Shown here in pieces: positions 1,717 through 33,056 of a DNA stretch of 64,000 nt. Both the position numbers and the translations under genes were made by a program. The stretch comes from a candidate division TM6 bacterium GW2011_GWE2_36_25 (GTDB lineage: Bacteria > Babelota > Babeliae > Babelales > UBA12409), in NCBI GenBank assembly GCA_000991575.1, contig LBRU01000009.1:698-64697 (forward strand), in the 5' to 3' direction. How positions within the stretch are numbered: position 1 is the first letter of the stretch; each line of letters starts with the position of its first letter. The notes beneath the pieces were generated by a model, which saw nothing but the letters and a program-made list of their open reading frames with translations, searched no databases and was not told the DNA's origin.

Positions 1717-3251
1717 CTTTTAACTTTAATAAGCCAATTTTCTAAGCCGCCCATAAAAAAAGTCGTTACCATAAATAAAACAACACCCGATGCTAATCCC
1801 GTCATAAATGCGCCCATTATTAACGCAACGCCATACATGACAAATTGCTGCTGTTGCTTTTGTTTTTTGTTGGTTAATGAACTAACCAAAAAGCCAACCC
1901 CTGTTAAAATGGGTAAAATATAATAAGGATCTGGTGCTGACAAATTTGGAATCCATAAAAATGAAGCATGATATAATTCAATTGCAGAAGATAACAGACG
2001 ATTTAAAACAATAAAAACTGGCAACTGTAAAAAGAGGGGCAAACATCCTGCAGCCATCTTTCCAAAGCCATGTTTACGATATAACTCCGCCTGCTCTTGC
2101 CTGAATCGCTCAGGATCATTGTGATATTTTTGCTTAAGATATTGAGTCTTTTTTTGTAAATCAGCCTGACTCTTCATCGACTTTTCTAAATTAAGTTGTC
2201 CCTGAATGGTAAATGGCAATAAGAGCAACCGTATAAGCAATGTCAATAAAATAATCGCAATGCCATAATTTTTAATATATTTGTAGAAAAAATTAAGAAC
2301 AAGCAAAACAATCTTAATTAAAGGAGACAAAATACCATAATTTAACAACTGTTCAAGGCGTGGATCAACAGCGCCCATAATGGACGCTTGTTTTGGTCCA
2401 ACATAAAATTTCAAAAGCCATGAACCCGCACCCTTAATTTCAGCACTTTCAAGTTGCATCATCAAAATGTCTTGCGGTAAATCTGAATTAAATGCAGCAC
2501 GATAAACAAAATTATCTTGATCATGCGTCATTCCATGAACAAAAAACTGATCTGCTGCACCAAAAATAGATGGTTTGCGCCAGGTCTTATTCATTATTTC
2601 ATTTAATTTATTATAAACCTTTAATGTTTGAACATTTGTCACCTCATTAACAAATGCACAAACTTGATTCGCTTTCATACCGGTTACTTGTGGCGCAGGA
2701 AAAAAGAGGCGCATCTTACTCAAATCAGTTGCTTTTTTATCCAAAGCAATCTGCAAACTCATTTCTGGATACTTTTTGTTAATGGTAAAAATTTTATGAA
2801 CTAAATTGCCTTCAAAAGAAGCACTATAATTTAAAACAATAGACTCTTCCGTCTCTTTTTTTTCTTGCAAATTATAATAGAAAGGTGTCTTTCCATCAAA
2901 TGCAAGTAAGAATGCTTTTTGTTGACGATCCACGTTGTCAATGTCAATCAATGATTCTTTGCCATGTTTAAAAGAGATTTTATCTAAGACAGCACCCGCT
3001 GTTGAAAATGTTAATTGAGCATAATCGGTTTCAAATTGTACTTGATCAGCTGTTCTATCTTCATGTTCAATAAAATCAATATCCCACCGCAATGGAGCAA
3101 CTGCCTGTGGTTCATGTTTTACTTCATAAACTTGGCCTGAAGCAACCTCCTCTTGAGGAGCCTCTTTTGCTTTCCTTCCTAAAAAATAGTTAAAGCCAAT
3201 GGCAAAAAGAAGCGTTAAAAATAGAGGAACTATCAATCCCCGTATATTCAT
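1713..3251 (-). CDS. yidC: membrane protein insertase YidC
   Basis: 512 aa with an N-terminal TM, a large periplasmic domain and a C-terminal multi-TM core (GIAIILLTLLIRLLLLPF...QKYHNDPERFRQEQAELYRKHG) typical of YidC/Oxa1. It overlaps the recR start by 4 nt. Confidence 0.9.
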   Translation of the reverse strand: MNIRGLIVPLFLTLLFAIGFNYFLGRKAKEAPQEEVASGQVYEVKHEPQAVAPLRWDIDFIEHEDRTADQVQFETDYAQLTFSTAGAVLDKISFKHGKESLIDIDNVDRQQKAFLLAFDGKTPFYYNLQEKKETEESIVLNYSASFEGNLVHKIFTINKKYPEMSLQIALDKKATDLSKMRLFFPAPQVTGMKANQVCAFVNEVTNVQTLKVYNKLNEIMNKTWRKPSIFGAADQFFVHGMTHDQDNFVYRAAFNSDLPQDILMMQLESAEIKGAGSWLLKFYVGPKQASIMGAVDPRLEQLLNYGILSPLIKIVLLVLNFFYKYIKNYGIAIILLTLLIRLLLLPFTIQGQLNLEKSMKSQADLQKKTQYLKQKYHNDPERFRQEQAELYRKHGFGKMAAGCLPLFLQLPVFIVLNRLLSSAIELYHASFLWIPNLSAPDPYYILPILTGVGFLVSSLTNKKQKQQQQFVMYGVALIMGAFMTGLASGVVLFMVTTFFMGGLENWLIKVKR

Positions 3252-3771: not shown

Positions 3772-5154
3772 ATGTACAAAAAAAAGGGACACATTCATTT
3801 TATGGGCATCGGCGGCATTGGCATGAGCGGTATCGCCAAAGTTCTCAAATGCCAAGGATACGAAGTTTCTGGCTGTGATCTTGATCATCAGCAAAAAAGT
3901 ATCTTTCAACTAAAAGAACTTGGATGCCCGATTGCTACTGCTCATCATTCTGAATTGTGTAAACAAGACAGTATCGATATTCTCGTCTATTCATCAGCAG
4001 TTTCAAAAAATCATCCAGAAATTATTCATGCGCAGCAACGAGGAATTCCCGTTATTCCGCGTGCGATTATGCTTGCAGAATTAATGCGCACCAAATATGG
4101 CATCGCCGTTGCAGGTGCTCATGGAAAAACGACAACCACATCCATGATTTCTCATATCTTAATGCAGGCACAATTACATCCAACGGTTATAATTGGTGGA
4201 CATTTAAAAAATATTTCAACCAATGCTCAATTAGGGAGTGGCAATTTTCTCGTCGCAGAAGCGGACGAAAGTGATCGCTCCCTGCTCAATTTGCACCCGA
4301 CACTAGCACTTGTTACCAATATCGATCTTGAACACTTGGATACCTACAAAGATCTTGATGATATCAAAGATACATTTAAGCAATTTTTAAACAATCTCCC
4401 CTTTTATGGAAAAGCATTTCTCTGCATAGATGATCCCGTTATTCGTTCTATTTTACCACTACCACACCTTAAAGTGATTACCTATGGACTTTCAGAAGAT
4501 GCTGATATGTGCGGCAAAGACCTTCAATTGGAAAAAACAACATCTCACTGTACCGTTTATGAAAAAAATAATAAACTTGGCACACTCGAACTCCCATTAG
4601 CAGGCGAACACAATATACAAAACGCATTGGGAGCTCTTGCCGTTGCATGCGATCTTGAAATTCCATTTTCTACGAGTGCTGATGCACTCAAAACATTACA
4701 AGGTATCGAAAGAAGATTTTCTTACCATGGAACGTACAAAGGGGCAGAACTTTTTGACGATTATGCCCATCATCCAAAAGAGATTGCAAGCATTCTTAAA
4801 GTTGCACGTCAACGGGCGCAAAAAAAATTGCATGTCGTTTTTCAACCACACCGTTTTTCACGCACGTATCATTTATGGAATGAATTTCTTAACACCTTCC
4901 TCACCAGTCAAATCGACAGTCTTATTATCACAGATATCTATCCGGCGAGCGAGGCCCCTATTCCGCACATTTCAAGCGAAAAACTCGTTGCAGCACTTCA
5001 ACAACAAAACCCTGCTTTTAAAACAACATATATTCCTTTGGATGATGAATTTAACGCAATCATTAAAAACCTCAATGAACACATCGAAAAGGATGACCTC
5101 ATTCTCTTTCTTGGTGCGGGCAAAGTTTATCAAATTCCTTACAAATTGAAATAA
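3772..5154 (+). CDS. murC: UDP-N-acetylmuramate--L-alanine ligase
   Basis: IHFMGIGGIGMSGIAKVL at the N-terminus, P-loop GAHGKTTTTSMI, and the Mur ligase middle and C-terminal domains. Length 460 aa. Confidence 0.95.
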   Translation: MYKKKGHIHFMGIGGIGMSGIAKVLKCQGYEVSGCDLDHQQKSIFQLKELGCPIATAHHSELCKQDSIDILVYSSAVSKNHPEIIHAQQRGIPVIPRAIMLAELMRTKYGIAVAGAHGKTTTTSMISHILMQAQLHPTVIIGGHLKNISTNAQLGSGNFLVAEADESDRSLLNLHPTLALVTNIDLEHLDTYKDLDDIKDTFKQFLNNLPFYGKAFLCIDDPVIRSILPLPHLKVITYGLSEDADMCGKDLQLEKTTSHCTVYEKNNKLGTLELPLAGEHNIQNALGALAVACDLEIPFSTSADALKTLQGIERRFSYHGTYKGAELFDDYAHHPKEIASILKVARQRAQKKLHVVFQPHRFSRTYHLWNEFLNTFLTSQIDSLIITDIYPASEAPIPHISSEKLVAALQQQNPAFKTTYIPLDDEFNAIIKNLNEHIEKDDLILFLGAGKVYQIPYKLK

Positions 5155-5212: not shown

Positions 5213-5476
5213 GTGATGAACAAATTTTTACTATTTTCACTTTTATTGCTCGTCAGCACTCATTTACTCAGCGTCCCTCGAGATGTAAGAGGTCGGCGAG
5301 GTGGACATGGGTGGCACCGCGGATATTATCCTGGTTGGCGAGGTGGTGCAGTAGCTCCTTATGCAGTAAATCCTTATTGGGGTTATAACCCGTGGTATTA
5401 CGGGGCTGGTCCTGGTGTTGGATTTGGTATCGGGGCGCCGAATGGTGGTTTTTATTTCAATATTCCCATTGATTAA
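5213..5476 (+). CDS. small secreted Gly/Tyr/Trp/Arg-rich protein
   Basis: Signal peptide MMNKFLLFSLLLLVSTHLLS. An AGGAAAGGGAAAG purine run lies upstream. The mature part is low complexity (GWHRGYYPGWRGG...GPGVGFGIG). Confidence 0.5.
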   Translation: MMNKFLLFSLLLLVSTHLLSVPRDVRGRRGGHGWHRGYYPGWRGGAVAPYAVNPYWGYNPWYYGAGPGVGFGIGAPNGGFYFNIPID

Positions 5477-5491
5477 AAAAGGAGTTGTGAG

Positions 5492-5782
5492 ATGAAAAAA
5501 CAGATATTTTTAATTTCATTGTTAGTTTTATTAATACCAATACATCAAGCAAAAGCTGGCGTTCATAGTGCGGCAGCAGTCGCTGGGGGCACTATTGGTG
5601 GTATCGCAGGTGGTATTTTAATTGGGTACCTCATTGGCAAACATGTTTCTAAAAAAAATAAAGAAGCAAAAACTGTACAAAAAACAACAAAAACAAACAA
5701 AAGTAAAAAGGCTAAAAAAACTAAAGCTGAGCCAGCAGTAATACAAACAACGGACGCAGCTCCCGAAGCAAAAGCTGCGTAA
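5492..5782 (+). CDS. small secreted/membrane glycine-zipper protein with Lys-rich tail
   Basis: RBS AAGGAG upstream, a signal peptide, a GGTIGGIAGGILIGYLIG glycine zipper, and then a KKNKEAKTVQKTTKTNKSKKAKK tail. Confidence 0.55.
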   Translation: MKKQIFLISLLVLLIPIHQAKAGVHSAAAVAGGTIGGIAGGILIGYLIGKHVSKKNKEAKTVQKTTKTNKSKKAKKTKAEPAVIQTTDAAPEAKAA

Positions 5783-5835
5783 ATAAAAAATGAGTGGGCA
5801 CTAAAAATGCCACCACTCAAAAATAGGAGGTTATC

Positions 5836-6111
5836 ATGAGAAAAATTTTAATCGTTACATTACTTTTAAGCACCCTCTCTCTTTCAGCTAAATACTCAAA
5901 TGATGACGAATACCCAAACACGCCACCCGTTGTAGGATCAGTTAAAGCTGCAGCTGAAGCACCTGCAGATATTGTCGCTGGATTAGGAGGCAAATCAATT
6001 TATGAAGATGAGGATGATCGCCTTCCAATTATTGGTGGTGTAGAAGCCGCCGGAGAAGGTGCAGCAAATATTGTTACAAGTTTTTTCGGAAAAGATATTC
6101 ATAAAAAATAA
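5836..6111 (+). CDS. small secreted protein with internal duplication
   Basis: RBS TAGGAGG upstream and signal peptide MRKILIVTLLLSTLSLSA. The motif VGSVKAAAEAPADIVAGLGGKSIYEDEDD is repeated as IGGVEAAGEGAANIVTSFFGKDI. Confidence 0.5.
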   Translation: MRKILIVTLLLSTLSLSAKYSNDDEYPNTPPVVGSVKAAAEAPADIVAGLGGKSIYEDEDDRLPIIGGVEAAGEGAANIVTSFFGKDIHKK

Positions 6112-6126
6112 TTATAAGGAGATATC

Positions 6127-6372
6127 ATGAAAAAGATTTTTATTTCATTACTTTTAATTATGTTATGTACCCCAAAACAAACTAAGCCTAACGGGGAAGG
6201 CCTTGGCATTGGTCTCGGCGTAGGCGCCTTAACCGGTATCGCCATTGGTGCCGCAGCTTCAAGATCTCGTGAACCAAAAGTAGTTTATGTAAGAGCGCCA
6301 GAAAACGATGAAGAAAATGATGAATACACTGATGACGATGATTACCAATCATTTGATGAACAAGATAATTAA
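6127..6372 (+). CDS. small secreted glycine-zipper protein with acidic tail
   Basis: RBS AAGGAG upstream, a signal peptide, a GLGIGLGVGALTGIAIGAAAS zipper, and an acidic C-terminus (ENDEENDEYTDDDDYQSFDEQDN). Its last codon and stop lie inside the repeat element beginning at about 6367. Confidence 0.5.
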   Translation: MKKIFISLLLIMLCTPKQTKPNGEGLGIGLGVGALTGIAIGAAASRSREPKVVYVRAPENDEENDEYTDDDDYQSFDEQDN

Positions 6373-6577
6373 GAACCTCGCAGCAAGCTACGAGGTATAA
6401 CGCTCGTATGGTTCGACTTGCTACATCCTGGGCAAAGTCGAAGGGTCACCACGAGCGCGCTCATCCTGATGCTTCGTCTGCGCTCAGCACTAAAGGCTGC
6501 GCTCATCCTGAGCTTGTCGAAGGATATGAGCGAATATAATGATTATGAAGCAAGCTTCGAGGAGTTTTACCTGTAAA
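6367..6577. repeat. composite hairpin-repeat element, family 1 (copy A, 211 bp, contains one 42-bp unit)
   Basis: It aligns end to end with the reverse complement of 20775-20943, with about 10 substitutions plus one extra 42-bp unit (TGCTTCGTCTGCGCTCAGCACTAAAGGCTGCGCTCATCCTGA). It contains the hairpin modules CGCTCGT...ACGAGCG and CGCTCAT-CCTGAG-CTTG-TCGAAGG-AT-ATGAGCG (6500-6532). Confidence 0.85.
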
Positions 6578-6595
6578 AAGAATTAAAGGGAAAAA

Positions 6596-6931
6596 ATGAA
6601 AAAATTATTTTTGTCGATCTTACTCTTAATTCCTTTGCAACAGTATGGTTGTTGTGGCGGCGATGGGTGGGGCTGGGGGCCTGCCGTTTTTGGCACAACG
6701 ATGGCAGCCGGTTTAACGGCAGCAGCAGTCTCTTCAAGCAACCGGCCTCAAACGGTTGTCATTGAAGAGCAACCAAAAAGAAGTGCAAAAAAAGAGATTA
6801 TGTATCTGCGCAAACAGATGAAAAAACTCATGGCGGATAATCAAAAAATGAATGAAATGATGCATGGGCTTCAGAAGGAAAATACGTCACTTAAAAAGGC
6901 GCTCAATCTGAGCCAAGCCACAGGTGCTTAA
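6596..6931 (+). CDS. small secreted protein (Gly/Trp N-terminal part, coiled-coil C-terminal part)
   Basis: Signal peptide MKKLFLSILLLIPLQQYG, then CCGGDGWGWGPAVFG, a hydrophobic stretch and a Lys/Met-rich helix. Confidence 0.5.
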   Translation: MKKLFLSILLLIPLQQYGCCGGDGWGWGPAVFGTTMAAGLTAAAVSSSNRPQTVVIEEQPKRSAKKEIMYLRKQMKKLMADNQKMNEMMHGLQKENTSLKKALNLSQATGA

Positions 6932-13637: not shown

Positions 13638-15101
13638 TTATTGCCAACTTTTTCTTAAGAAGTTTTTATATGCATCAAATATTTCTCGATTTTGGCTTAA
13701 CTTCTGCCTTATCTGTTTAAAGGCAAAACGCTTAATTTCTTCATTTTCTAATTTGAGAAATTCGGGCAAGAAATCAATAAACCTAATAGCATCTTCGGTA
13801 TAAACCGTCTGTTCTAATATAAAGCGTTTTATAAATTTTATCACACAAGACATTCTTCGGTCTTCTTGAATTTCATTTATATTTCTCACAATTTCATGAA
13901 CCATTTCCAGATTATTGTTTGAGTAAGCGTACTTTAACAAATCAATGAGAGATCGAGGGTTTATTTTTTCTGCTCCTTTTTTCATGAGTAAAAGAGCAAT
14001 TTTTATATTTCTGAGTGTATCACGATGGATTCCTTTTGTTGCAAAATCTAATACAGACCAACCTTCTGCATCGGTAAGAGTAATATTCGCCCGGAACCTT
14101 AGAAGCTCTTTGGCGGTTTTTCTATTTGCAGATAAAGCGGCGCTCATTAAAGCGGTAACGCCATCTCTGTTTGCTCGATTAATATCAGCACCATTTTCAA
14201 GAAGTAAACGAATAATTTCCGGAGTACCAAGTTCTGCGGCAAACATCAATGGTGATATTCCTGCTCGATAGACAAGAATATCACGTTCATATTTATAGGG
14301 ATCATTTGGATCCAGACCCTTTTTTATGAGCGCTTCAACAGCTATGACGTTATGAGAATGAATAGCAGTAAATAAAGGTGGTTCGCTATATGGCCCATGA
14401 GGAGTTCTAATATCGGCACCATGATTAATAAGAATTTGAACGATTTCGTTGTATCCATGCATTATAGCAAATTGTAAAAGAGTAAGGCGATCAGAGGAAA
14501 AAGAAGTGTCGTTGAGATTAAAACCAGGCATCATTACCAAATGTCTTGTTTGTTCTATATTGTTATTTTTTACTGCTTCGATTAATTGCATTTGACTATT
14601 AGAGGCACCATGATCGAGAAGAAGTTGTGCCATTTCAGTATATCCCTGAGCTCGTGCAAATTCTAAAAGAGTATGGCCTTCAAGCATTAACGACCAAATA
14701 TTGAGTTCTATACCGGGTATTGTTATAAGATCATGTGCACGATCTATATTGTTATTTTTTACTGCCTCAATTAATTTCATTTGACTATTATATGCACCGT
14801 GATCAAAAAGAAGTTGTGCGATTTCCGTATACCCATGACTTTGAGCAAATTCTAAAAGGGTAAGCCCTTCAATTGTTAAATAACAAGTATCGAGGTTAAT
14901 ACTTCCACTTGTGATAAGCTCCGATGCCTGCTTTACATTATTAGTTTTTATTGCTTCGATTAATTGTTCAGTGAGCCATTCGGTGGTGCGGAAAAATCTT
15001 GCAATTGATAAAGGCAGATGGTCCAAAAACTCAGCTTGTGCCGGCGATAAGCCCAAAAAATTATTGACAAAAAGGAGATTTTTAAAATTTTCATATCGCA
15101 C
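13638..15101 (-). CDS. ankyrin-repeat protein
   Basis: Multiple ANK consensus stretches (TPLMFAAELGTPEIIRLLLENGADINRANRDGVTALMSAA). In addition there are three ~62-aa tandem repeats (LIEAVKNNNI...LLEFA.A.GYTE.AQLL.DHGA). Confidence 0.85.
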   Translation of the reverse strand: MRYENFKNLLFVNNFLGLSPAQAEFLDHLPLSIARFFRTTEWLTEQLIEAIKTNNVKQASELITSGSINLDTCYLTIEGLTLLEFAQSHGYTEIAQLLFDHGAYNSQMKLIEAVKNNNIDRAHDLITIPGIELNIWSLMLEGHTLLEFARAQGYTEMAQLLLDHGASNSQMQLIEAVKNNNIEQTRHLVMMPGFNLNDTSFSSDRLTLLQFAIMHGYNEIVQILINHGADIRTPHGPYSEPPLFTAIHSHNVIAVEALIKKGLDPNDPYKYERDILVYRAGISPLMFAAELGTPEIIRLLLENGADINRANRDGVTALMSAALSANRKTAKELLRFRANITLTDAEGWSVLDFATKGIHRDTLRNIKIALLLMKKGAEKINPRSLIDLLKYAYSNNNLEMVHEIVRNINEIQEDRRMSCVIKFIKRFILEQTVYTEDAIRFIDFLPEFLKLENEEIKRFAFKQIRQKLSQNREIFDAYKNFLRKSWQ

Positions 15102-18045: not shown

Positions 18046-18480
18046 TTAGTTAACAAAGGGCAATTTATTCCAAATATGAGCAACACTAGATTTTACTTTA
18101 TCTCGCGTTTTCCAAAGTAATGGCATCGATGCCGTCACACATAATGCAGAAAGTGCATAAGGGTGTGTTTTGCAAAATTCAACAGTGCTTTTTGATGCAC
18201 GTAAAAGTGCATCTTGCGCATGGCTCATACCTTCTTTTGCTGACTTAACAACCGCACGCACCCCCTTTACTACTCTAATAGTGTGCCGCAACCTTCTTAC
18301 TTTTGTTGGTGCTTGAGCGATAAGGTGACCAACATTTTTCACGTGCTGCGGAACCTTTTTTATTGCCTCCTTCATCACAATCATTTTTTGGCGAACGGGA
18401 GCAATATTAATGGAATTACGAGCATCAATTGAAAAGAATAACAAACTAAAAAGCGAAAGAATAATTATCTTTCTGTCCAT
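18046..18480 (-). CDS. secreted paralog family A, member 1
   Basis: It has a signal peptide. The C-terminal half (AQDALLRASK...LLWKTRDKVKSSVAHIWNKLPFVN) is paralogous to 18546-18953. Confidence 0.5.
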   Translation of the reverse strand: MDRKIIILSLFSLLFFSIDARNSINIAPVRQKMIVMKEAIKKVPQHVKNVGHLIAQAPTKVRRLRHTIRVVKGVRAVVKSAKEGMSHAQDALLRASKSTVEFCKTHPYALSALCVTASMPLLWKTRDKVKSSVAHIWNKLPFVN

Positions 18481-18545
18481 AGAAGTTCCTCCATTATCAA
18501 TTCTTTTGAAGATAAAGGCCCCTCTACACGAGAGGCCTCATCATT

Positions 18546-18953
18546 TTATTTAACAAAAGGTAATTTCTTCCACATTTTTACAAATGCTGATTTTACCTTA
18601 TTTCTTGTCTTCCAAAGCACTGGTGTAGCTGCAGTAACAACGATGGCTGTTACGACACAACGAGGATGCTCGTAAAAAGCTCCGGCAACACGCCCGGAAG
18701 CAAACATTAATGCATCTTGAGCTTTTGCAAAACCATGTTTTGCTCCAGATATTACTTGTTTTGGAGCAGCATAAATTCCGCTCGCTATAGTGCGTGATGC
18801 ATTGGCAACATGATGAACGCGACTTTCGCAAAATTGAACCGTGCCATGAGCACCATTTTTGCAAGAAGAGATAACACCATCCAATGTAATGGCATTCAAT
18901 GATGAAAGTGATAATAAACTAACAACTGAGAGAACGATTGTTTTCTTATTCAT
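18546..18953 (-). CDS. secreted paralog family A, member 2
   Basis: I place the start at MNKKTIVLSV (ATG 18953), not at the track start 19007. The C-terminus ...AQDALMFASG...VLWKTRNKVKSAFVKMWKKLPFVK is paralogous to member 1. Confidence 0.5.
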   Translation of the reverse strand: MNKKTIVLSVVSLLSLSSLNAITLDGVISSCKNGAHGTVQFCESRVHHVANASRTIASGIYAAPKQVISGAKHGFAKAQDALMFASGRVAGAFYEHPRCVVTAIVVTAATPVLWKTRNKVKSAFVKMWKKLPFVK

Positions 18954-19016
18954 AATAATTCCTCCATAAAAAAACAAATTAATATTTTTAATCGCACATT
19001 GGAGCACAATAATTAT

Positions 19017-19310
19017 TCAAAAAACTAACTCCATTGGAATCAATTGGTTGCATTTCTGTTTGTACTTCAGCATCGACACAACGGGATTTTGCATAATCCA
19101 ACCCTTAAAATATGCTCGTCTATTTTTGAGTTTGATACATGCGGCCACCGTTAAAGCGCCACCACATGCAATATATCCTGCAAGTATTTTCAAACCATAA
19201 CGGTCTAAAAAACGCCCGCACTGAGCAAGAACCGGTTCACAAATACCTGCTTGTATTGAAGACAATGAAACTAAACTTAACAACGAAAGAATAAGTATTT
19301 TCTTATTCAT
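19017..19310 (-). CDS. secreted paralog family B, 46-bp-deletion variant (frameshifted C-terminus; possibly decaying)
   Basis: Start placed at MNKKILILSLL (ATG 19310). It is near-identical to 19345-19692 up to ...RRAYFKGW. After that a 46-nt deletion relative to the neighbour changes the frame. Confidence 0.45.
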   Translation of the reverse strand: MNKKILILSLLSLVSLSSIQAGICEPVLAQCGRFLDRYGLKILAGYIACGGALTVAACIKLKNRRAYFKGWIMQNPVVSMLKYKQKCNQLIPMELVF

Positions 19311-19344
19311 AATAATTCCTCCATAAAAAAACAAATTAATATTT

Positions 19345-19692
19345 TTAATCGCACAAAAAACTAATTCCATTGGAATCAATTGGTTGCGTTTCTGTTTGTA
19401 CTTCAGCATCGACACAACGGGATTTTGCATAATCAATCTCCATTTGCAACTTTTCCCTTCCATAGTTGTATCCTTCATTCCAACCCTTAAAATATGCTCG
19501 TCTATTTTTGAGTTTGATAACGGCGGCTAAAGCTAAAGCACCACCACACGCAACATATCCTGCAAGTATTTTCAAACCATTACGATCTAAAAAACGACCG
19601 CACTGAGCAAGAACCGGTTCACAAATACCCGCTTGCAATGAAGATAAAGACATTAAGCCTAAAAGAGATACTACCAAAGCCTTCTTATTCAT
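19345..19692 (-). CDS. secreted paralog family B, full-length member
   Basis: MNKKALVVSLLGLMSLSSLQAGICEPVLAQCGRFLDRNGLKILAGYVACGGALALAAVIKLKNRRAYFKGW... It has a signal peptide followed by a TM segment. Confidence 0.5.
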   Translation of the reverse strand: MNKKALVVSLLGLMSLSSLQAGICEPVLAQCGRFLDRNGLKILAGYVACGGALALAAVIKLKNRRAYFKGWNEGYNYGREKLQMEIDYAKSRCVDAEVQTETQPIDSNGISFLCD

Positions 19693-19710
19693 AATAATTC
19701 CTCCATGTTT

Positions 19711-20190
19711 TTAGCCAATATGACAATCCATAACGCCTGATTGCACCATGCAATACAGAGCCTCATTAACAAACTCATCGCTTTCCATAATTTGTTTCTC
19801 TAAATTTTTTAATTTTAGAGAAAAATCTTTCCATCTTTGTTCAAGAAAAAGATATTTATCGCTATACACATGCTTATTCAGATCACGCACACAAGCCAAT
19901 AATGGATAAAGCGAATGACTAAACTTTTTTTGTACAGCAAAAATAATGTGTGATGTTTTCTTTAGAGACAAAATTTTTTCATAGAATTTGTGCAAAGCTT
20001 CAAATTCTTTTCTCAATTGAACATGCTCGCGATGCAGTGATATGAAGGCACAAGAAAAGATAATTGCACATACGCTCGATGTACAAACTACTTCAGGAGC
20101 AAAACTTTCAAGAAAATCCCTAGATAATCCAGAATAATTAGATTGGAAAATAAATAAGAATAATACCATCAACCACTTTTTACTTATCAT
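19711..20190 (-). CDS. hypothetical protein with N-terminal hydrophobic segments
   Basis: 159-aa ORF in the same orientation as the surrounding cluster. No family recognised. Confidence 0.4.
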   Translation of the reverse strand: MISKKWLMVLFLFIFQSNYSGLSRDFLESFAPEVVCTSSVCAIIFSCAFISLHREHVQLRKEFEALHKFYEKILSLKKTSHIIFAVQKKFSHSLYPLLACVRDLNKHVYSDKYLFLEQRWKDFSLKLKNLEKQIMESDEFVNEALYCMVQSGVMDCHIG

Positions 20191-20230
20191 CTAAAAAACC
20201 TCTACTTAGGGAAATGGGTACAAACGCCAA

Positions 20231-20632
20231 TTATTTTTCAGAAACCGTCCCCTTTAACATATCAATTACATAGGTACCTGGTTTTTTTACCACTACTTTT
20301 ACTGAACGTTTATGTAAATATCCCAAACCAAAACCTGTTATTACACAAAGAACTTGCTGTTTCCATGGAGATAAAGCATCCCATTGTTTTTTATATTCGA
20401 TACTTTTTTCTTTGATATACGTACACCAATCACCCAAATCTTTTATTACTGATGAGGATGTAGGAAGAACTGCTCCTGAGGCAATTGAATTTATTTGTTC
20501 AGATACCTGAGATTCAGGCACAGACGCAAGAGATGCACCATCTTTATCTGACGAAGAACCATTTGGCACTTCAGCGTAAAGGGAAAGTGAAAAGAAAGAA
20601 CCTAAAAGAAGTGTCAATGAAATCTTATTCAT
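20231..20632 (-). CDS. secreted paralog family C, member 1
   Basis: It has a signal peptide and shares the motif W(D/N)xLSxxKQxxLCxxxGxxLG (QWDALSPWKQQVLCVITGFGLGYL) with 21242-21880. Confidence 0.5.
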   Translation of the reverse strand: MNKISLTLLLGSFFSLSLYAEVPNGSSSDKDGASLASVPESQVSEQINSIASGAVLPTSSSVIKDLGDWCTYIKEKSIEYKKQWDALSPWKQQVLCVITGFGLGYLHKRSVKVVVKKPGTYVIDMLKGTVSEK

Positions 20633-20774
20633 AAGTTTTCCTCCATTTGAAGTTATACTAATAGTTTACCTTTTTTTAAAAAAAACTCAAGAAAAACGGG
20701 GCTTTAAAAACCCCGAATAAAAGTGGTTAAAAACAACACAAATTTAATAAACGTTGAAATAGGCTATTTAATTG

Positions 20775-20943
20775 TTTATAGGTAAAATTCCTCGAAGCTT
20801 GCTTCGCAATCATTGTATTCGCTCATATCCTTCGACAGGCTCAGGATGAGCGCGCTCGTGGTGACCCTTCGACTTTGCTCAGGATGCAGCAAGTCGAACC
20901 ATACGAGCGTTATACCGCGTAGTTTGCTATGAGGTTCTTAATT
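20775..20943. repeat. composite hairpin-repeat element, family 1 (copy B, 169 bp, inverted relative to copy A, lacks the 42-bp unit)
   Basis: Its reverse complement aligns over its full length with 6367-6577, apart from the single 42-bp unit. Confidence 0.85.
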
Positions 20944-20960
20944 GGAAATAAAAACAAAGC

Positions 20961-21194
20961 ATTCACCATGAGCGAGCTTGAAACGGAGTGAAAAGTGAGT
21001 CGAATGGTTTTATCGAACGCTCTTCGTTAAACTTTCTTTGTAATTCAGAAAAATAGAAAACTTTATCGTGCGTTCGGTGAGACCCTTCGAGACACTCGCT
21101 ACGCTCGTTCCTCAGGGCGAACGCGTTAGGTAAAATGGTAAGAATGAAGAATGCGTTCGCCCTGAGCGAAGTCGAAGGGTTTTATCGAACGCGA
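20961..21194. repeat. cluster of three family-2 hairpin modules (fwd 20961-21020 degenerate, rev 21068-21125, fwd 21151-21194)
   Basis: The modules share GCGTTCG..CCTGAG..TCGAAGGG..CGAACGC with the arms at 28155-28300 and 32403-32763. For example, 21152-21192 reads TGCGTTCGCCCTGAGCGAAGTCGAAGGGTTTTATCGAACGC. Confidence 0.75.
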
Positions 21195-21241
21195 GAAGTA
21201 AAAATTATCTTAAAATAAGGATATCAACAATTATCGTAAAT

Positions 21242-21880
21242 TTATTTTTCTGATTTACCAGCTTCTTGAGAAGAAGCATTATCATCAGGTATAAACTTTT
21301 CCGATACTTCAGTTTCTTCTTTTCTCTCAGTTGAAATTTCTTCAGGTTTATAAAAGCTGCTCTCTTTAAAATCATCCCAAATATCTCGTCCAACCGCATA
21401 TAACCCGGCTAAGGTTGCACCCGCAACAGCCATTTTTACCGGAAATCGCGCAACTTTACCTAAAACAATGCCTGATCCTAAACACAAGAGATTTTGCTTC
21501 GTAGATGATAAACCATTCCAATACTGTTGTGCTCTTTTTCCACAAACAAGACTTTTACCTAAAAATTCAACGCTTTCTTTCTTGAATGATCGATAAAAAT
21601 TACGACTTTTCTCATTCAAAGATGTACAAATTTGACAACGCTCCACACTCACCTCAGGTGAAAAGTCGGTTAAAGGAATAACCAAATCTTCTCCTAACCC
21701 CATAGGCACAATACCGGTGCTTGGTAAAAATTCAATTGGTTCAACCTTTTGAGCTTCAGAAATCACTTGAACCTGAGAACCTTTAAAAAATCCTGATAAG
21801 TATTCAAGCGGATTGAAAGCCTGAATTGAAGAGAGTGAAAATAAGGTTAAAAGAGAGAAAACTAAAATTTTCTTATTCAT
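21242..21880 (-). CDS. secreted paralog family C, member 2
   Basis: Signal peptide MNKKILVFSLLTLFSLSSIQA and the motif YWNGLSSTKQNLLCLGSGIVLGKV. The C-terminal tail is acidic. Confidence 0.5.
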   Translation of the reverse strand: MNKKILVFSLLTLFSLSSIQAFNPLEYLSGFFKGSQVQVISEAQKVEPIEFLPSTGIVPMGLGEDLVIPLTDFSPEVSVERCQICTSLNEKSRNFYRSFKKESVEFLGKSLVCGKRAQQYWNGLSSTKQNLLCLGSGIVLGKVARFPVKMAVAGATLAGLYAVGRDIWDDFKESSFYKPEEISTERKEETEVSEKFIPDDNASSQEAGKSEK

Positions 21881-22099
21881 AAAGAACCCCCATTAAAAAT
21901 TTATATTTAACGTTTTCATTCTACCAAAACTGCCAAAAATTGCAAGAAGAATTTAAAGTTTTACTTTTAGTTTTTAGAGGATTGTCGAGATATCAAAATA
22001 TTTTCTTTGAAAAATATTCAAACACCTTTTTTAAAAAGTTTTTAAAATTTTGATGCAATACATTACTCCTGTTACACTAATTCTGCGTAAAGGAGTTTT

Positions 22100-24289
22100 A
22101 TGGATTTCGCTGAATTTTTATCAACCGAATTAAATAACGAACAACAAAAAGCGGTTAGGCATGCAAAAGGACCTCTTCTGGTTATTGCGGGTGCAGGCTC
22201 AGGCAAAACGCGTGTTATAACCAGTCGCATTATCAACCTTATACTCACCGAAAAAGTTACTCCAACTTCAATTATTGCATTAACGTTTACTAATAAAGCT
22301 GCCCAAGAAATGCGTGAACGCGTACAAAAAAGCATTGGCATACCGGCCACTCCTTTTAAAAATAACAGTTTTTTTATTGGAACTTTCCATTCTTATTGCT
22401 TGCGACTTCTTAAAAAAAATGCACACATTTTAAAACTCGATCATTTTTCCATTCTCGATGGCGATGATCAAATAAGCATGTTAAAGAAATTAGTTGATGC
22501 GCATTGCCCTAAAAAAATTCAACCACGCCAAGCTCTTTATCAAATATCCACCCTCAAAAACAATCTCCTCAACCAGCAAGAAACACTCATTGATCCTACC
22601 GTACAAGAACTTTATAATTTATATGAACACGAAAAAAGATTAAGCAACTGTTTAGATTTTGACGATTTACTCATTAAAGCACTTGAACTTTTCAGCTCAA
22701 AAAATTTTAAAACAGCACACCAAAATCATATTCGTCATGTTCTTGTTGATGAATATCAAGATACGAATGTTGTGCAAAATGAATTGCTCAAAGAAATGTG
22801 CCTCGATAAAAAAAAATTCATCATCGATTCACTCTGTGCCGTAGGAGATGAAGATCAATCTATTTACTCATGGCGTGGTGCAACGATTGATAATATGCTC
22901 AATTTCAAAAAAGATTTCCCCGGAACAACACTCATAAAAATTGAACAGAACTATCGCTCAGTAAAACCAATTCTTGAAGCGGCAAATCATATCATTAAAC
23001 ATAATCAAAATCGCCATCCGAAAAAATTGTGGTCAACACGTGAAGGCTCAAACAATATTTTGGAGCTTACGTGCATGTCCGGATTTCAAGAGGCGGATAT
23101 GATTGCGGCAAGTGCTTCATTGTTACAACAAAAAAATGAATTACAAAATTGTGCAGTCCTCTACCGCACCCATTTTCAATCACGTCTTATTGAAGAAGCA
23201 TTAATAAAAAAATCAATTCCGTACAAAATTATCGGCGGCATTCAATTTTATGAACGCAAAGAAATTAAAGACCTGCTCGCCTATTTACGTTTATTAATTA
23301 ATCCTTTTGATAGAATTGCGCTTTTTAGAATACTCAACTGCCCTCCTCGCAGATTGGGTGACAAATTCGCAGAACAATTTCAAAAAGCATGGGAACAAGA
23401 ACCATTTCAAACATTTACTGATATTGCACAAAAACTTTTAGAAGATTTAAAACCTCAACAAAAAAGCAACCTTGAAGATTTTATTAATATTTTCTCATCG
23501 ATAGATCTCTCTTTTTCCCCTGCGCACGCAATCAACCACATGAGCAAAAAATGTGGTTACCTCACTTATCTTAAGGAAGAGTACGAACCCCAAGAAGCAG
23601 AGGCACGCATTCAAAACATTCAAGAATTAATTAATGCTGCTCGCTATTTTGAAGAACAGGGATTAGAAACCACTGAACAATTTCTTCAAGAAATTGCCCT
23701 TTTACAAGATAAAATTAACCAAGAAAATAACACGAACGAACGCCTAACCCTCATGACTATTCACGCAGCAAAAGGACTCGAATTTGACACAATCATTCTT
23801 GCAGGGCTCGAAGAAGGACTCTTGCCCAGTTCAAAATCCCTCGAAAATGAGTCAAATATCGAAGAAGAGCGACGATTATTATATGTAGGTATCACAAGGG
23901 CACGCAAAAAATTAATTCTCTTACAAGCAGGATATCGACACACTTTCGGTTCTATGACTTATCAACAACCCTCTCGCTTCCTCAAAGAACTACCCAATAC
24001 GGGCATTCAGAGGGAAGATTGCTCATATTGGAAAGAATGTCAGACAATTCAATTTTTACGCAGTTTTTTCGGCATAATAGCACCAGAACAGTCAATCCAA
24101 ACCTTTGGCCCCGCAAAAAAATTTAAGGCAGCCTCTAAAAAAGATCTGCACTCGTATCCTTCGACAAGCTCAGGACGAGCGCAGCCTTTAGTGCTGAGCG
24201 AAGCCGAAGCATCAGGACGAGCGCAGCCTTTAGTGCTGAGCGAAGCCGAAGCATCAGGACGAGCGCAGCAGGACGAGCGCAGCCTTTAG
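22100..24289 (+). CDS. uvrD: UvrD/PcrA-family ATP-dependent DNA helicase, helicase core; reading frame terminated inside a repeat array
   Basis: Motif I GAGSGKT, motif II VDEYQDTN, YRS, and motifs V/VI (TIHAAKGLEF...YVGITRARKKL). The final ~45 aa are translated repeat (SGRAQPLVLSEAEA). The TAG stop at 24287-24289 is created by a 14-nt partial repeat unit. Confidence 0.9.
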   Translation: MDFAEFLSTELNNEQQKAVRHAKGPLLVIAGAGSGKTRVITSRIINLILTEKVTPTSIIALTFTNKAAQEMRERVQKSIGIPATPFKNNSFFIGTFHSYCLRLLKKNAHILKLDHFSILDGDDQISMLKKLVDAHCPKKIQPRQALYQISTLKNNLLNQQETLIDPTVQELYNLYEHEKRLSNCLDFDDLLIKALELFSSKNFKTAHQNHIRHVLVDEYQDTNVVQNELLKEMCLDKKKFIIDSLCAVGDEDQSIYSWRGATIDNMLNFKKDFPGTTLIKIEQNYRSVKPILEAANHIIKHNQNRHPKKLWSTREGSNNILELTCMSGFQEADMIAASASLLQQKNELQNCAVLYRTHFQSRLIEEALIKKSIPYKIIGGIQFYERKEIKDLLAYLRLLINPFDRIALFRILNCPPRRLGDKFAEQFQKAWEQEPFQTFTDIAQKLLEDLKPQQKSNLEDFINIFSSIDLSFSPAHAINHMSKKCGYLTYLKEEYEPQEAEARIQNIQELINAARYFEEQGLETTEQFLQEIALLQDKINQENNTNERLTLMTIHAAKGLEFDTIILAGLEEGLLPSSKSLENESNIEEERRLLYVGITRARKKLILLQAGYRHTFGSMTYQQPSRFLKELPNTGIQREDCSYWKECQTIQFLRSFFGIIAPEQSIQTFGPAKKFKAASKKDLHSYPSTSSGRAQPLVLSEAEASGRAQPLVLSEAEASGRAQQDERSL

Positions 24290-24644
24290 TGCTGAGCGAA
24301 GCCGAAGCATCAGGACGAGCGCAGCCTTTAGTGCTGAGCGAAGCCGAAGCATCAGAACGAGCGCAGCCTTTAGTGCTGAGCGAAGCCGAAGCATCAGGAC
24401 GAGCGCAGTCTTTAGTGTTGAGCGAAATCGAAGTATCCGCGCAACCCTCAAGAGAAAGCCATTTTTCAATTCAACATTCCTCTAACAAAAATTTCAATCA
24501 CCAAAAAATAAATTTTTCTGCGAAACACAATACTCCAATAAATAACGATCTAAAAAAGAATAGCAATTACCCCCATAATTCAATTAACACAAAATTAAAA
24601 ACGCACAACGACGCGCTCGTCCTGAGCTTGTCGAAGGATACGAG
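24151..24644. repeat. repeat-bounded insertion inside uvrD/pcrA: 32-bp perfect inverted repeats (24151-24182 / 24613-24644) enclosing a 42-bp tandem array and an AT-rich core
   Basis: Left arm CTCGTATCCTTCGACAAGCTCAGGACGAGCGC is the exact reverse complement of right arm GCGCTCGTCCTGAGCTTGTCGAAGGATACGAG. Both are family-1 hairpin modules. Confidence 0.85.
24171..24436 (+). repeat. 42-bp tandem repeat array (6 units plus one 14-nt partial unit at 24255-24268)
   Basis: The unit is CAGGACGAGCGCAGCCTTTAGTGCTGAGCGAAGCCGAAGCAT. Units start at 24171, 24213, 24269, 24311, 24353 and 24395 (the last is degenerate). Confidence 0.9.
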
Positions 24645-24828
24645 CACATCGATGTGCTTTCAAAAATGTGAATACTCATGGAAAAAGCATCAACCGGTTA
24701 CGCACAAAACATTTGGTGTTGGAGTAATTCAAGATGTAGAAAAAAGGCCGGATGGTTCAACACACATCACGGCCAAATTTAAAAATGGTATCAAAAAAAT
24801 TGATAGCAAATTTTTAGAAGCAGTTTAA
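24289..24828 (+). CDS. uvrD: detached C-terminal segment of the same UvrD/PcrA helicase (different frame)
   Basis: It ends in WKKHQPVTHKTFGVGVIQDVEKRPDGSTHITAKFKNGIKKIDSKFLEAV. This is the conserved PcrA/UvrD C-terminal Tudor-like domain (W..G..V.H..FG.G.V......V.F...G.K.L...F). It has no start codon or RBS of its own other than a GTG inside the repeat. Confidence 0.7.
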   Translation: MLSEAEASGRAQPLVLSEAEASERAQPLVLSEAEASGRAQSLVLSEIEVSAQPSRESHFSIQHSSNKNFNHQKINFSAKHNTPINNDLKKNSNYPHNSINTKLKTHNDALVLSLSKDTSTSMCFQKCEYSWKKHQPVTHKTFGVGVIQDVEKRPDGSTHITAKFKNGIKKIDSKFLEAV

Positions 24829-27878: not shown

Positions 27879-28154
27879 ACTCGATCTTCTTCTACATTAG
27901 CAAAATTCATTTTTGAAAATAAATAGTTTTAAAAAAATAATCTTATTTATTCGACTCAGTGATTGTTATTCAAAATATAATTATGAAAGAACTTTTAAAA
28001 ATTTCGGGTTTAATAAATACGTTATCATAGACCTCTTCCGAAACAATAAAGCACTCAAACGTTTTTAACGTTGCCCCTATTAATGCTTATATTGATAATC
28101 AAGAAGTTATTCACCATAAATAAATTTGATAATAAAGGTTGAATTTGACTTCAC

Positions 28155-28300
28155 GCATTCGCCATGAGGAACGAGCATAGCGAGTGTCTCGAAGGGTTTT
28201 GCCGAACGCACTTATTAAGATAAATCCATAATGTTACTCAGTGTACGTGTTCGATGAGACCCTTCGAATCGCCATTATAATGGCTCCCTCAGGGCGAACG
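28155..28300. mobile_element. MITE-like internal-deletion derivative of the GIY-YIG element (two inverted family-2 arms, 29-bp core)
   Basis: The arms are 28155-28211 and 28241-28300. The core TTATT/AAGATAAATCCATAATGTTACTCAG matches the first 5 nt (32463-32467) and the last ~30 nt (32674-32702) of the interior of the 32403-32763 element. Confidence 0.7.
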
Positions 28301-28377
28301 GAAGAAAAGCACCTTAATATAAAACAATCGAATATTAACCTGACTTAAATTTCATTGTCTCGGAAGAGATCTCATCT

Positions 28378-29620: not shown

Positions 29621-29986
29621 TCATCTATCTGAACAGCTTTTTTCATGCCTTAAACAGTGATAAAGATCATAAAATCCACTCTTGCAAAATCTACAGAAAA
29701 AATTTTTCTTTTGCAGATGAACTCTTTCAATGTGTGGCCATACATCTCGGGCTCTTGAAAGCATTTTTTTACACATAAGACATTGTCTGGGAGAGAATTC
29801 ATCAACCTTTTCAATTTTGAGTAACTCAGCCCAAAATGAAGAATGTCTTTTAATTTTTATCATTAAATAAGTTTTTATCTCGGGAGACAACAAATCTTCT
29901 TCTTGAGAATTTTCTGATCGATCCATTGCACACGCGCAGGAAACCAAATATAAAAAAAATAAAAATCGATTTCTCATATGAAACAC
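29621..29986 (-). CDS. secreted protein with two eukaryote-type C2H2/C2HC zinc fingers
   Basis: It has a signal peptide. Finger 1 is CLMC-x12-H-x4-H (CLMCKKMLSRARDVWPHIERVH). Finger 2 is CRFC-x12-H-x3-C (CRFCKSGFYDLYHCLRHEKSC). Confidence 0.6.
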   Translation of the reverse strand: MFHMRNRFLFFLYLVSCACAMDRSENSQEEDLLSPEIKTYLMIKIKRHSSFWAELLKIEKVDEFSPRQCLMCKKMLSRARDVWPHIERVHLQKKNFFCRFCKSGFYDLYHCLRHEKSCSDR

Positions 29987-29989
29987 AAA

Positions 29990-30379
29990 TTATCTTTGAT
30001 GCACAAATTCATGCGCATCCCGATTGTACTTTGTGCTATAGAATTTTTCACAAAAGTGACATTTAAAGGGTTTTAATTTTTGATGAGTCCTTTCATGCCG
30101 TTCACACTTTGATCTAATGTCAAAAATTTTACCACATACGGAACATGCAAAGGGCACTTTCTCACATTTTTGCGTACACAACTTCGGCCCTTCACCCACC
30201 TTGTCAGTATCAATCATTTTTCGTCTTTTTTCAGGTTTTTCTTCATGTGCTGCACGAGAAAACATTACTAAACTTTCGGCTGCACGAACATCATGTGATG
30301 TAAGCCTTGTATCTCGTTTCTCCATAGCATTAACTGAAAATACGGCGTAAAATAACATTAAAATAATATTTTTTTTCAT
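29990..30379 (-). CDS. secreted protein with two classical C2H2 zinc fingers
   Basis: It has a signal peptide. CSVCGKIFDIRSKCERHERTH and CHFCEKFYSTKYNRDAHEFVH both fit C-x2-C-x12-H-x3-H exactly. They are joined by a TGEKP-like linker (HQKLKPFKC). Confidence 0.7.
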   Translation of the reverse strand: MKKNIILMLFYAVFSVNAMEKRDTRLTSHDVRAAESLVMFSRAAHEEKPEKRRKMIDTDKVGEGPKLCTQKCEKVPFACSVCGKIFDIRSKCERHERTHQKLKPFKCHFCEKFYSTKYNRDAHEFVHQR

Positions 30380-30443
30380 AATTATAAATCCTTATTTTCT
30401 TTTTCTTTTTTTACATAACTGCAAGTCTTTTTCATAAAAACGC

Positions 30444-32287: not shown

Positions 32288-32399
32288 TCAATTAAGATTT
32301 TTTATTTAGTATAACATGCGCATAAGAAAATGAAGCGCTTGACTGCTTTTAAACCTTTCACATATCAATGTTCATATTGATAATAAACAGTGTATTTGA

Positions 32400-32766: not shown

Positions 32767-33056
32767 GAAAATTCACTATAAACTACTATAAATCCATCTA
32801 AAGTATATATTATTTTGTTAAGTTTCAGAATTAAAAATTTTTATTGCCTCGAACACATTGGATAAATGCGAGAGAAGGTTGCGTCAAATAAACTGGACAA
32901 CCTATTCAACAAAGTTTTGGCAACGCGTGAAATCTTCTCGTCTCCATCCATTGCTAAAAGCACGATGGTATTAGACGACGGAAAATAAAAAAAAGAATTA
33001 CCAATTTGCAAGCACGCCACATTCCGTGGTAAAAAATAAAAAAATGGGAATCGCTC

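Follow-up and report, generated by a model that had tools for sequence, protein, structure and literature searches.

Inverted hairpin modules around small GIY-YIG genes in a candidate division TM6 bacterium and in other phyla: a probable Ssn-type nuclease/repeat system with a new motif

Ssn proteins (CDD cd10448) are GIY-YIG proteins of roughly 94 amino acids (aa) that are flanked by hairpin repeats of the NTS or SRM type (Chenal et al., 2025; PMC11893778). Single-stranded DNA is the sole substrate cut by the Ssn enzymes of Neisseria, N. elongata, N. wadsworthii, and Wolbachia, which cleave one strand, adjoining the repeat, and leave RNA untouched; cleavage requires a conserved sequence located upstream of the hairpin (PMC11893778). 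A regulatory role was initially considered by the same authors, and 2% of Neisseria NTS are intragenic (PMC11893778). The CGTC-tagged repetitive extragenic palindromes (REPs), which form the families CGTC-1 to -4 and include Neisseria dRS3 as well as Rickettsia RPE-4 and RPE-6, were described with no dedicated enzyme; intragenic copies occur in repair genes, including those of UvrD/Rep helicases, and many REPs were suggested to be transcribed (Di Nocera, De Gregorio and Rocco, 2013; PMC3733652). In these REPs, an unpaired tag (CGTC, or else TGTC or CCTC) stands at one end, the stem has 8-9 bp, the loop 4-5 nt, and a short CCA tail follows. CGTC-tagged REPs are the same kind of repeat as the Ssn/SRM hairpins. 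Here, we describe hairpin repeats (modules) that are built around the boxes CCTGAG and TCGAAGG and adjoin a small GIY-YIG gene in a 64-kb stretch (the window) of a candidate division TM6 (Dependentiae) genome. The window matches groundwater TM6 (Dependentiae) genomes such as GCA_000991385.1, and coordinates within it are used throughout.

Judged from sequence comparison, these modules are probably the cognate DNA repeats of a small single-domain GIY-YIG nuclease, in a system of the Ssn/SRM type that would be a functional analog of REP/RAYT. The pair most likely represents a nuclease/hairpin-repeat system of the Ssn type whose motif is new and whose protein clade is distinct. The anatomy of the modules, their covariation, the link between gene and repeat in different phyla, the presence of multiple copies and of a miniature, the in-frame inserts, and the variation between assemblies were established directly.

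The pattern CCTGAG-N(0-30)-TCGAAGG has 10 exact matches on the two strands of the window and none in 100 dinucleotide-preserving shuffles. Taken by themselves, CCTGAG (box 1) occurs 27 times and TCGAAGG (box 2) 16 times, with 11.7 and 5.1 occurrences expected, respectively. Altogether, 12 modules were counted, as well as three arrays (6457-6498, 24183-24450, and 35967-36058) of a related 42-nucleotide (nt) tandem unit, which has the 5' head of the modules and the initial CCTGA of box 1 and belongs to the same system. The modules are confined to 6.4-36.1 kb of the window and are mostly intergenic, with two sets located inside genes. An initial annotation of this DNA had placed modules at 6500-6532, 6401-6459, 24615-24645, 32405-32460, 28155-28209, and 21153-21192, all of which proved correct; additional copies were found at 20820-20853(-), 20851-20909(-), 21070-21124(-), 24149-24182(-), 28247-28301(-), and 32706-32760(-). 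The layout proposed there, namely stem, CCTGAG, core, TCGAAGG, spacer, and complementary stem, was reproduced by DNA folding, which recovered an outer stem, a bulge of 2-6 nt, and then CCT/AGG in five of the six modules folded (z-scores of -2.3, -4.2, -2.5, -1.7, and -0.9). The degenerate copy 28153-28213 and the 42-nt unit folded no better than shuffles.

For the analysis of module anatomy and covariation, 363 and 150 distinct modules, respectively, were taken from GIY-YIG loci of multiple phyla. The covariation set was defined solely by the head and GAG/CGA, with the stem bases left free. The eight bases ahead of box 1 read C-C-G-Y-T-C-R-Y in the 363 modules, CGYTCRY being the conserved part, that is, the head. 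Just outside the boxes, the base preceding box 1 is complementary to the one following box 2 in 301 of these modules (shuffle mean 159, maximum 193). In modules defined by the head and GAG/CGA alone, the outer triplets of the two boxes covary, with 57 occurrences of CCT/AGG, 29 of GGT/ACC, 17 of GCT/AGC, and six each of CCC/GGG and GTC/GAC. In the 150 modules, the inner helix is 96.7% paired and displays double-sided change at three of its five pairs (UA 91 / CG 48; CG 78 / GC 61; CG 96 / GC 46). The covariation score of 0.323 compares with 0.163 +/- 0.007 for shuffled sets, none of 500 reaching it, and slid partners gave 0.136 at most. The hairpin is strongly supported by this compensatory change across 150 diverse copies, and the selection for a hairpin postulated in the initial annotation is borne out. 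GAG was found at +4 to +6 after 74% of gene-adjacent heads without selecting for it. The truly invariant parts of the module, conserved across copies, are the unpaired head CGYTCRY and the inner GAG...CGA.

The stem consists of eight positions, two of which are G/A oppositions. GAG facing CGA would form a tandem sheared G.A / A.G pair closed by G-C, a motif that is stable in DNA and RNA. The loop is the 5-nt CYTGT in 80 of 157 short modules, and no CCA tail was detected in the 3' position counts. The core, which had been regarded as variable, does vary in length; long cores mostly form hairpins and in many cases repeat the same motif in nested form, as exemplified by CCTGAG-TAGGGA-CTGAGC-TCG-GCGAAG-GCCCGTA-TCGAAGG in sphingomonads.

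A 3' arm perfectly complementary to the head is present in 37 of 360 modules, with about 15 in a control that is too lenient, the head being conserved and the flanks G+C-rich, and the count of perfect 7/7 arms alone is informative. Outside TM6, a head-complementary 3' arm is clearly present in a minority of modules, and the head is therefore conserved as a sequence and not as a helix strand; its conservation holds with or without a 3' arm. The initial annotation, which spoke of variable complementary stems around invariant boxes, has swapped these roles in part: its 5' stem arm is the conserved, probably recognized head, while half of each box is covarying stem. Namely, the sequences GCGTTCG, CGCTCAT, and CGCTCGT listed there as different stems are variants of the one head CGYTCRY, two or three positions apart. 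The complementary outer arms do exist in this genome, and beyond it they are clear in the minority just mentioned. The boxes are invariant in GAG...CGA, but their outer three bases are covarying stem in relatives.

It is unlikely that the modules act as RNA, be it as terminators, mRNA-stabilizing hairpins, or small RNAs, and that their link to the GIY-YIG gene is incidental or regulatory. The long modules of TM6 do end with a terminator-like tail, GGG-TTTTAT, a weak promoter-like site is located just upstream of the module preceding the GIY-YIG gene, and many REPs may be transcribed, as suggested by Di Nocera et al. (2013; PMC3733652). However, a terminator scan flagged no module, and the T-run is missing from modules of other phyla. 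Intragenic copies are found in either orientation with respect to transcription, and a transcript would differ in sequence at its two ends because the gene-flanking modules are on opposite strands. No module matched any of the 4227 Rfam covariance models at gathering scores, tRNAs being the sole matches in the window, and a search of 20700-21300 at E <= 1 returned merely chance-level matches to U6 and SCARNA7. The Ssn enzyme, moreover, leaves RNA alone (PMC11893778). A literature search on a module-derived DNA 17-mer, CCTGAGCYTGTCGAAGG, and on its translated peptides retrieved nothing relevant.

The association of the modules with GIY-YIG genes was examined in 80 loci, which were retrieved from species-representative genomes using an alignment of 39 relatives. 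These loci cover the Alpha-, Beta-, and Gammaproteobacteria, Desulfobacterota, Myxococcota, Campylobacterota, Chloroflexota, Nitrospirota, Bacteroidota, Fibrobacterota, Acidobacteriota, and Dependentiae, with Sphingomonadales, Burkholderiales, Lysobacterales, Methylococcales, Legionella, Geobacteraceae, Syntrophobacter, Thermodesulfobacteriota, Myxococcales, Sulfuricurvum, Dehalococcoidia and other Chloroflexota, Nitrospirota, Bacteroidota, Fibrobacterota, Vicinamibacterales, and Babeliales among the taxa represented. Using strict boxes and a distance of <=200 nt, modules were found upstream on the gene strand in 43 loci, downstream on the opposite strand in 46, and in both positions in 30. 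With free but complementary stem triplets and <=220 nt, the respective numbers were 54, 55, and 40, and 69 of the 80 loci possessed at least one module. Block-shuffled loci gave about 0.1, and module density far from the gene was 0.19 per kb. The layout module, GIY-YIG gene, inverted module recurs in at least 10 phyla; a search of other phyla for such hairpins beside GIY-YIG genes had been suggested in the initial annotation. Its proposal that the boxes may be recognized by the GIY-YIG protein gains support from this association. The adjacency is seen from the side of the gene; a given repeat need not have a GIY-YIG gene beside it.

In many loci, modules are located 8-60 nt from the start codon, as could be expected if they regulated the GIY-YIG gene as operator or autoregulation sites, all other copies being decayed by-products; a regulatory role was also the first to be considered for Ssn (PMC11893778). 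We regard this explanation as very improbable, since modules are placed symmetrically downstream of the gene as well, and since dozens of gene-less copies exist, some of them in unrelated genes, along with nested copies.

A search of cluster representatives yielded 1,508 relatives at E <= 1e-10, including neighboring small GIY-YIG families. Many of the predicted homologs are 110-170 aa long rather than about 90 aa, probably because gene callers run on through the stop-free flanking modules. One example is a Sphingomonas protein (L205 1501-1821) that ends with ...SERALRLRSGRTRE, a tail encoded by the downstream module. Units resembling the 42-nt unit adjoin GIY-YIG genes in two unrelated uncultured bacteria (L164 about 2780-3000; L182 about 2380-2470). 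They take the form head + xxTGA + TGCTTCG... + GCTCAGCA-xTAAAsGCTG-CGCTC, with three 72-nt tandem copies in L164, and look like a second conserved module type.

The GIY-YIG gene of the window (32463-32688, minus strand) is bracketed by inverted arms of 72 nt, 32389-32460 and 32706-32777, that are 96% complementary. The cores of these arms are two long modules with heads facing outward. The module at 32706-32760 (minus strand) lies upstream of the gene on the gene strand, its 3' end being 17 nt before the ATG, while the one at 32406-32460 (plus strand) is downstream on the opposite strand, begins 2 nt past the stop codon, and folds with -12.3 kcal/mol (z -2.5). An intact 87-aa gene is present in two other TM6 assemblies, and the gene of GCA_000991385.1 has a 30-nt deletion. 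The intact form matches Pfam PF01541 over residues 3-74 (E 1.7e-19); no informative NCBIfam family was found for it. The catalytic residues Y6, Y16, G18, R26, H30, and E63 are invariant across 39 members of the clade, the signature of which reads YILKCxDxSYYIGHT...YTSxRLP...KKWxRxKKE. The TM6 protein is 54% identical to a Sphingomonas member of its own clade. Among solved structures, its best relatives are UPF0213 proteins (YazA/YhbQ; PDB 1ZG2 and 1YWL; E 3e-21 and 3e-20), which are of the same size and share the catalytic motifs; Slx1 (PDB 7CQ2) is a distant relative. No flanking hairpin repeats were present at the Cupriavidus, Xanthomonas, and Legionella loci examined for relatives of the GKGAKYTR type.

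With the Ssn/SRM system, the modules and their gene share a single-domain GIY-YIG protein of about 90 aa, a gene flanked on both sides by inverted hairpin repeats of 20-50 nt, an oriented, conserved, and unpaired 5' head beside the hairpin, many gene-less copies, and enrichment in symbionts and intracellular bacteria. They differ in the head, which is CGYTCRY here and CGTCAT in SRM, and in the stem, which is CCT-GA-G / C-GA-AGG with two non-Watson-Crick positions, whereas SRM is a perfect TTCCCGCG palindrome; in addition, the modules described here nest and lie in frame in genes. At Sphingomonas locus L127, a GIY-YIG gene with CCTGAG-type modules on its flanks lies about 1.2 kb from canonical SRM/CGTC-type repeats, which are paired head to head (3974-4080); hence, both repeat families can coexist in one genome.

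Partial similarity to the CGTC-tagged REPs is seen in the unpaired tag at one end, a stem of about eight positions that opens with a purine-pyrimidine pair, often A-T followed by T-A, a loop of 4-5 nt, head-to-head dimers (21070-21192 in the window), and copies in genes of UvrD/Rep-type helicases. The tag is CGTTC or CGCTC here, i.e., CG(T/C)TC, with one extra pyrimidine in comparison to CGTC; our modules also contain the GAG/CGA positions in the stem, lack a CCA tail, and have a GIY-YIG gene as a consistent neighbor. In three loci (L181, L184, and L203), TGTCAT stands immediately ahead of CCTGAG. The REP/RAYT systems (REPtrons, REPINs) likewise comprise a vertically inherited nuclease gene between inverted hairpin repeats and gene-less copies and dimers dispersed in the genome, with recognition presumed to occur on single-stranded DNA. 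Here, the fold is GIY-YIG and not HUH/Y1, the head is CGYTCRY and not GTAG, and an association with Y1 genes is lacking.

Copies of the unit occur elsewhere in the genome. A second full unit, located at an unrelated locus next to pepP and recR, has the same arrangement of inverted modules and is 91% identical over about 430 nt, both modules included; the two GIY-YIG genes differ in nine synonymous and four non-synonymous codons. A third copy, at 28130-28335 (minus strand), was recognized by repeat analysis and by alignment with the full unit. It retains the end modules (28247-28301 on the minus strand and the degenerate 28155-28209 on the plus strand, with CCATGAGG), the spacer, 13 nt from the start and 6 nt from the end of the open reading frame (ORF), and the shared 3' flank, and has lost 244 nt of the ORF. 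It is a miniature derived by internal deletion, the usual origin of miniature non-autonomous elements. The genome thus holds at least three copies of the module-GIY-YIG-module unit, one of them a miniature. Together with the in-frame inserts in two genes and the variants between assemblies, these copies uphold the initial suggestion of function or mobility.

A gene for a Y1 transposase of the IS200/IS605 type (161 aa; L213 803-1288) was identified about 1.2 kb from the second GIY-YIG copy. Its proximity raises the idea of REP-like elements moved by a Y1 (IS200/IS605 or RAYT) transposase, with the GIY-YIG gene as a passenger. Such a scheme appears hardly credible to us: the hairpins flanking this Y1 gene, ACGGCTTAAAAGCCGT and CCGACGGCTTTTTTAAGCCGTCGG (ACGGCTT...AAGCCGT), are its own and differ from the modules, and the modules are devoid of the GTAG head of RAYT-associated REPs. 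A Y1/RAYT partner was also rejected on the basis of gene content, with Y1 homologs present in one of the 80 GIY-YIG loci and in neither the window nor 120 viral loci.

The two genes of the window that carry inserts code for a UvrD/PcrA-like helicase and a 6-phosphogluconate-dehydrogenase-like (6PGDH) protein. For the short module, five of six reading frames are free of stop codons, and for the 42-nt unit four of six, which explains how such inserts can be tolerated. In the helicase gene, the short module at 24149-24182 (minus strand; read as ...YPSTSSGRA...) and the 42-nt array at 24183-24450 (minus strand), which encodes the 14-aa repeat GRAQPLVLSEAEAS, are placed after the helicase core, which ends near residue 608; another short module, 24613-24646 (plus strand; read as ALVLSLSKDTS), lies in the C-terminal part. 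The gene is split into ORFs 22100-24289 and 24289-24828, at a 14-nt partial unit near 24268. Given the N gaps of other assemblies at this point, the split is probably an assembly collapse in the array and not a real frameshift. In the 6PGDH gene, two 42-nt units and a truncated short module (35967-36076, plus strand) are inserted in frame just before the IDGGNS motif; residues 80-117 of the encoded protein have no counterpart in PDB 4e21, in which residues 109 and 110, on either side of the gap, are contiguous. Rickettsia palindromic elements (RPE), reportedly described by Ogata and colleagues in 2000, are said to lie in frame in essential genes and to add peptide segments, RPE-1 being about 100-150 bp in length. 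The common feature is the presence of in-frame palindromic inserts in protein-coding genes of an intracellular bacterium; the TM6 inserts differ in being built of 33-nt and 42-nt units of variable copy number, and the two were compared by description only.

Assemblies differ in both genes. The C-terminal ORF of the helicase is 165, 179, or 193 aa long, and the 6PGDH gene has one or two of the 42-nt units; little weight was given to this variation because short-read assemblies are unreliable for array length. Further differences define three haplotypes at two unlinked sites, 32652/32653 and 36068-36076 (L001, L002, L218, and L219). One haplotype has an intact GIY-YIG gene and a full 6PGDH module, another a 30-nt deletion in each, and that of the window deletions of 38 nt and 39 nt. 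At each site, the deletions have one breakpoint in common; the two in-frame deletions of the 6PGDH gene share the breakpoint CCTGAGCTTGT^ in the hairpin loop. The latter could mark a break site, or the two deletions may equally have occurred successively in one lineage. The shared breakpoint is only a hint of site-specific cutting, because GCA_000991385.1 carries the intermediate form at both loci.

Successive deletions of this kind, and the behavior of the 42-nt units as a slippage-prone tandem array, would also be in line with spread by slippage, gene conversion, and palindrome recombination with no protein partner, the gene association then reflecting insertion hot spots. This is improbable in our judgment. 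Slippage does not explain the conservation of the 17-mer and the head over more than ten phyla, the fixed rule of orientation around one gene family, or the conservation of an unpaired head that has no complement.

Several observations weigh against the proposed Ssn-type nuclease/repeat system. The GIY-YIG gene of the window is dead, a pseudogene in which a 38-nt deletion at 32652/32653 has removed the region of the YIG motif. Neither an empty site nor a target duplication was found, and 11 of the 80 loci contain no module detectable by the pattern used. The 17-mer occurs in at least 120 contigs of a viral collection, and no GIY-YIG gene is located near it in 120 of them (1.13 Mb); this is expected of dispersed gene-less copies. 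In 21 Sphingomonadales loci from several genera, the gene sits between nrdR and an RNA methyltransferase gene, and this one conserved site implies vertical inheritance of the gene with its flanking modules and argues against ongoing movement of the gene itself. Conserved chromosomal position and vertical inheritance of this kind resemble domesticated RAYTs. Stem type does not track protein similarity, which is 0.608 within and 0.605 between types, a difference equaled or exceeded in 376 of 1000 permutations. The lack of such a relation suggests that the protein reads the head and the GAG/CGA base and not the three covarying pairs.

The remaining objections concern the relationship to Ssn itself. 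The published SRM pattern, HGTCWY N0-2 YYVSBRH N0-5 WNVSBRG N0-2 RNCYNB, has no match in the window (0.1 in simulated sequences) and only two in the 80 GIY-YIG loci, neither of them gene-adjacent; as a positive control, it detected four CGTCATCCCCGCGAAGGCGGGGATCCAG repeats around an Azospirillum GIY-YIG gene. The TM6 protein shares 35% identity (49 bits) with this canonical, SRM-flanked Azospirillum Ssn, and we estimate that a match of this level, taken as a proxy, would miss, in a genome-sized tblastn search, the E < 1e-10 by which homologs of N. meningitidis SsnA are defined. UPF0213 proteins, for which no repeat partner is known, give the TM6 clade scores that are at least as high.

As for the mode of action of the proposed nuclease, the module consists of the unpaired CGYTCRY head and a helix made of an R-Y pair, three covarying pairs, GAG facing CGA, and a G-C closure, the loop usually being CYTGT or a nested hairpin; a 3' arm that pairs with the head is part of this scheme in the TM6 genome only. 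The nuclease gene lies between two inverted modules, both with heads outward. The module presumably folds while DNA is single-stranded during replication, repair, or uptake. By analogy with Neisseria and Wolbachia Ssn, the nuclease may then bind just one of the strands, at the head and the hairpin base, and nick nearby. Repeated cutting and repair, or mobilization in trans, could spread gene-less modules, including into module loops and ORFs.

A more far-reaching possibility, which we consider doubtful, is that the modules and the GIY-YIG clade constitute pan-bacterial autonomous and non-autonomous mobile elements that are mobilized by a GIY-YIG single-stranded-DNA nuclease. The mobilizer would then be neither a DDE, an HUH/Y1, nor a serine/tyrosine recombinase, and the preferred targets of the hairpins would be the loops of other hairpins, producing 'Russian-doll' modules by nesting, and essential genes, with insertion in frame. 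If true, this would define a new class, in terms of mechanism, among prokaryotic transposons and would supply the missing enzyme for many head-tagged palindromic repeats.

The other modules of the window are intergenic. The short module at 6499-6532 (plus strand) has the head GCGCTCAT followed by CCTGAG-CTTGT-CGAAGG, a 2-nt bulge, AT, and the 3' arm ATGAGCG, and folds with -7.5 kcal/mol (z -2.3). The compound module at 6401-6459 (plus strand) is composed of CGCTCGT, an inverted half-module (ATGGTTCGACTTGCTACAT), CCTGGGCAAAGTCGAAGGG, TCACC, and ACGAGCG; its fold of -14.5 kcal/mol (z -4.2) was matched by none of 200 shuffles. This module bears CCTGGG, and its twin at 20866 bears CCTGAG. Between these two modules, a single 42-nt unit (6457-6498, plus strand) has the head CGCTCAT and CCTGA, then TGCTTCGTCTGCGCTCAGCACTAAAGGCTG; it has no fold alone. 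All three are enclosed in a composite intergenic element with the hairpin-like ends CCTCGCAGCAAGCTACGAGG and GAAGCAAGCTTCGAGG (6367-6577, plus strand). The second copy of this element (20775-20943, minus strand) has modules at 20820-20853 and 20851-20909 and is without the 42-nt unit. The two copies, roughly 170-210 nt in length, are 92-94% identical, and AATTAA occurs on both flanks of each; the composite element may be a miniature inverted-repeat transposable element with target duplication. In a metagenome contig (L236), a different upstream gene is joined exactly at the boundary of the element. One flank of the Y1 gene mentioned above shares the 10-mer GAACCTCGCA with the element end at 6374.

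Three further modules lie at 20959-21192. A degenerate long module at 20959-21020 (plus strand) reads GCATTCAC, CATGAG...TCGAATGG, TTTTAT, and CGAACGC. The long module at 21070-21124 (minus strand), whose core AACGAGCGTAGCGAGTGTC is a nested AC-GAG-CGTAG-CGA-GT motif, forms a head-to-head pair with that at 21153-21192 (plus strand), GCGTTCGC-CCTGAG-CGAAGT-CGAAGG-GTTTTAT-CGAACGC (fold z -1.7).

Apart from the modules, a family of small minus-strand genes at 18419-21925 has 5' regions that recur five times (...TTCTTATTCATAATAATTCCTCCAT; on the coding strand GGAGG followed by ATGAATAAGAA). These genes encode signal-peptide proteins starting with MNK(K/I), and similar tandem genes for small secreted proteins are located at 5213-6931. 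Three adjacent minus-strand genes at 29621-31190 are eukaryote-like: two encode C2H2 zinc-finger-like proteins with signal peptides and one an ankyrin-repeat protein, which fits an intracellular lifestyle in protists. A 189-nt tandem repeat, with two to three copies of 76-87% identity, is present at 14512-14966.

The system described here extends the discovery of Ssn in 2025 by a second protein clade and by a hairpin that differs in sequence. Since the published search pattern misses these modules, the spread of nuclease-repeat pairs has probably been underestimated. The putative recognition site is well defined, with an unpaired head and a GA-containing helix in which the stem pairs are freely swappable, and offers a candidate specificity for single-stranded-DNA tools. 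Translated modules give rise to junk peptides such as ...LSLSKD..., ...RPELVEG..., ...FDKLRT..., and ...PSTSSGR..., both in predictions and in real proteins. The TM6 population, with its intact, partly deleted, and further deleted forms of both gene and module, provides a test case for whether such a system is selfish, domesticated, or decaying.

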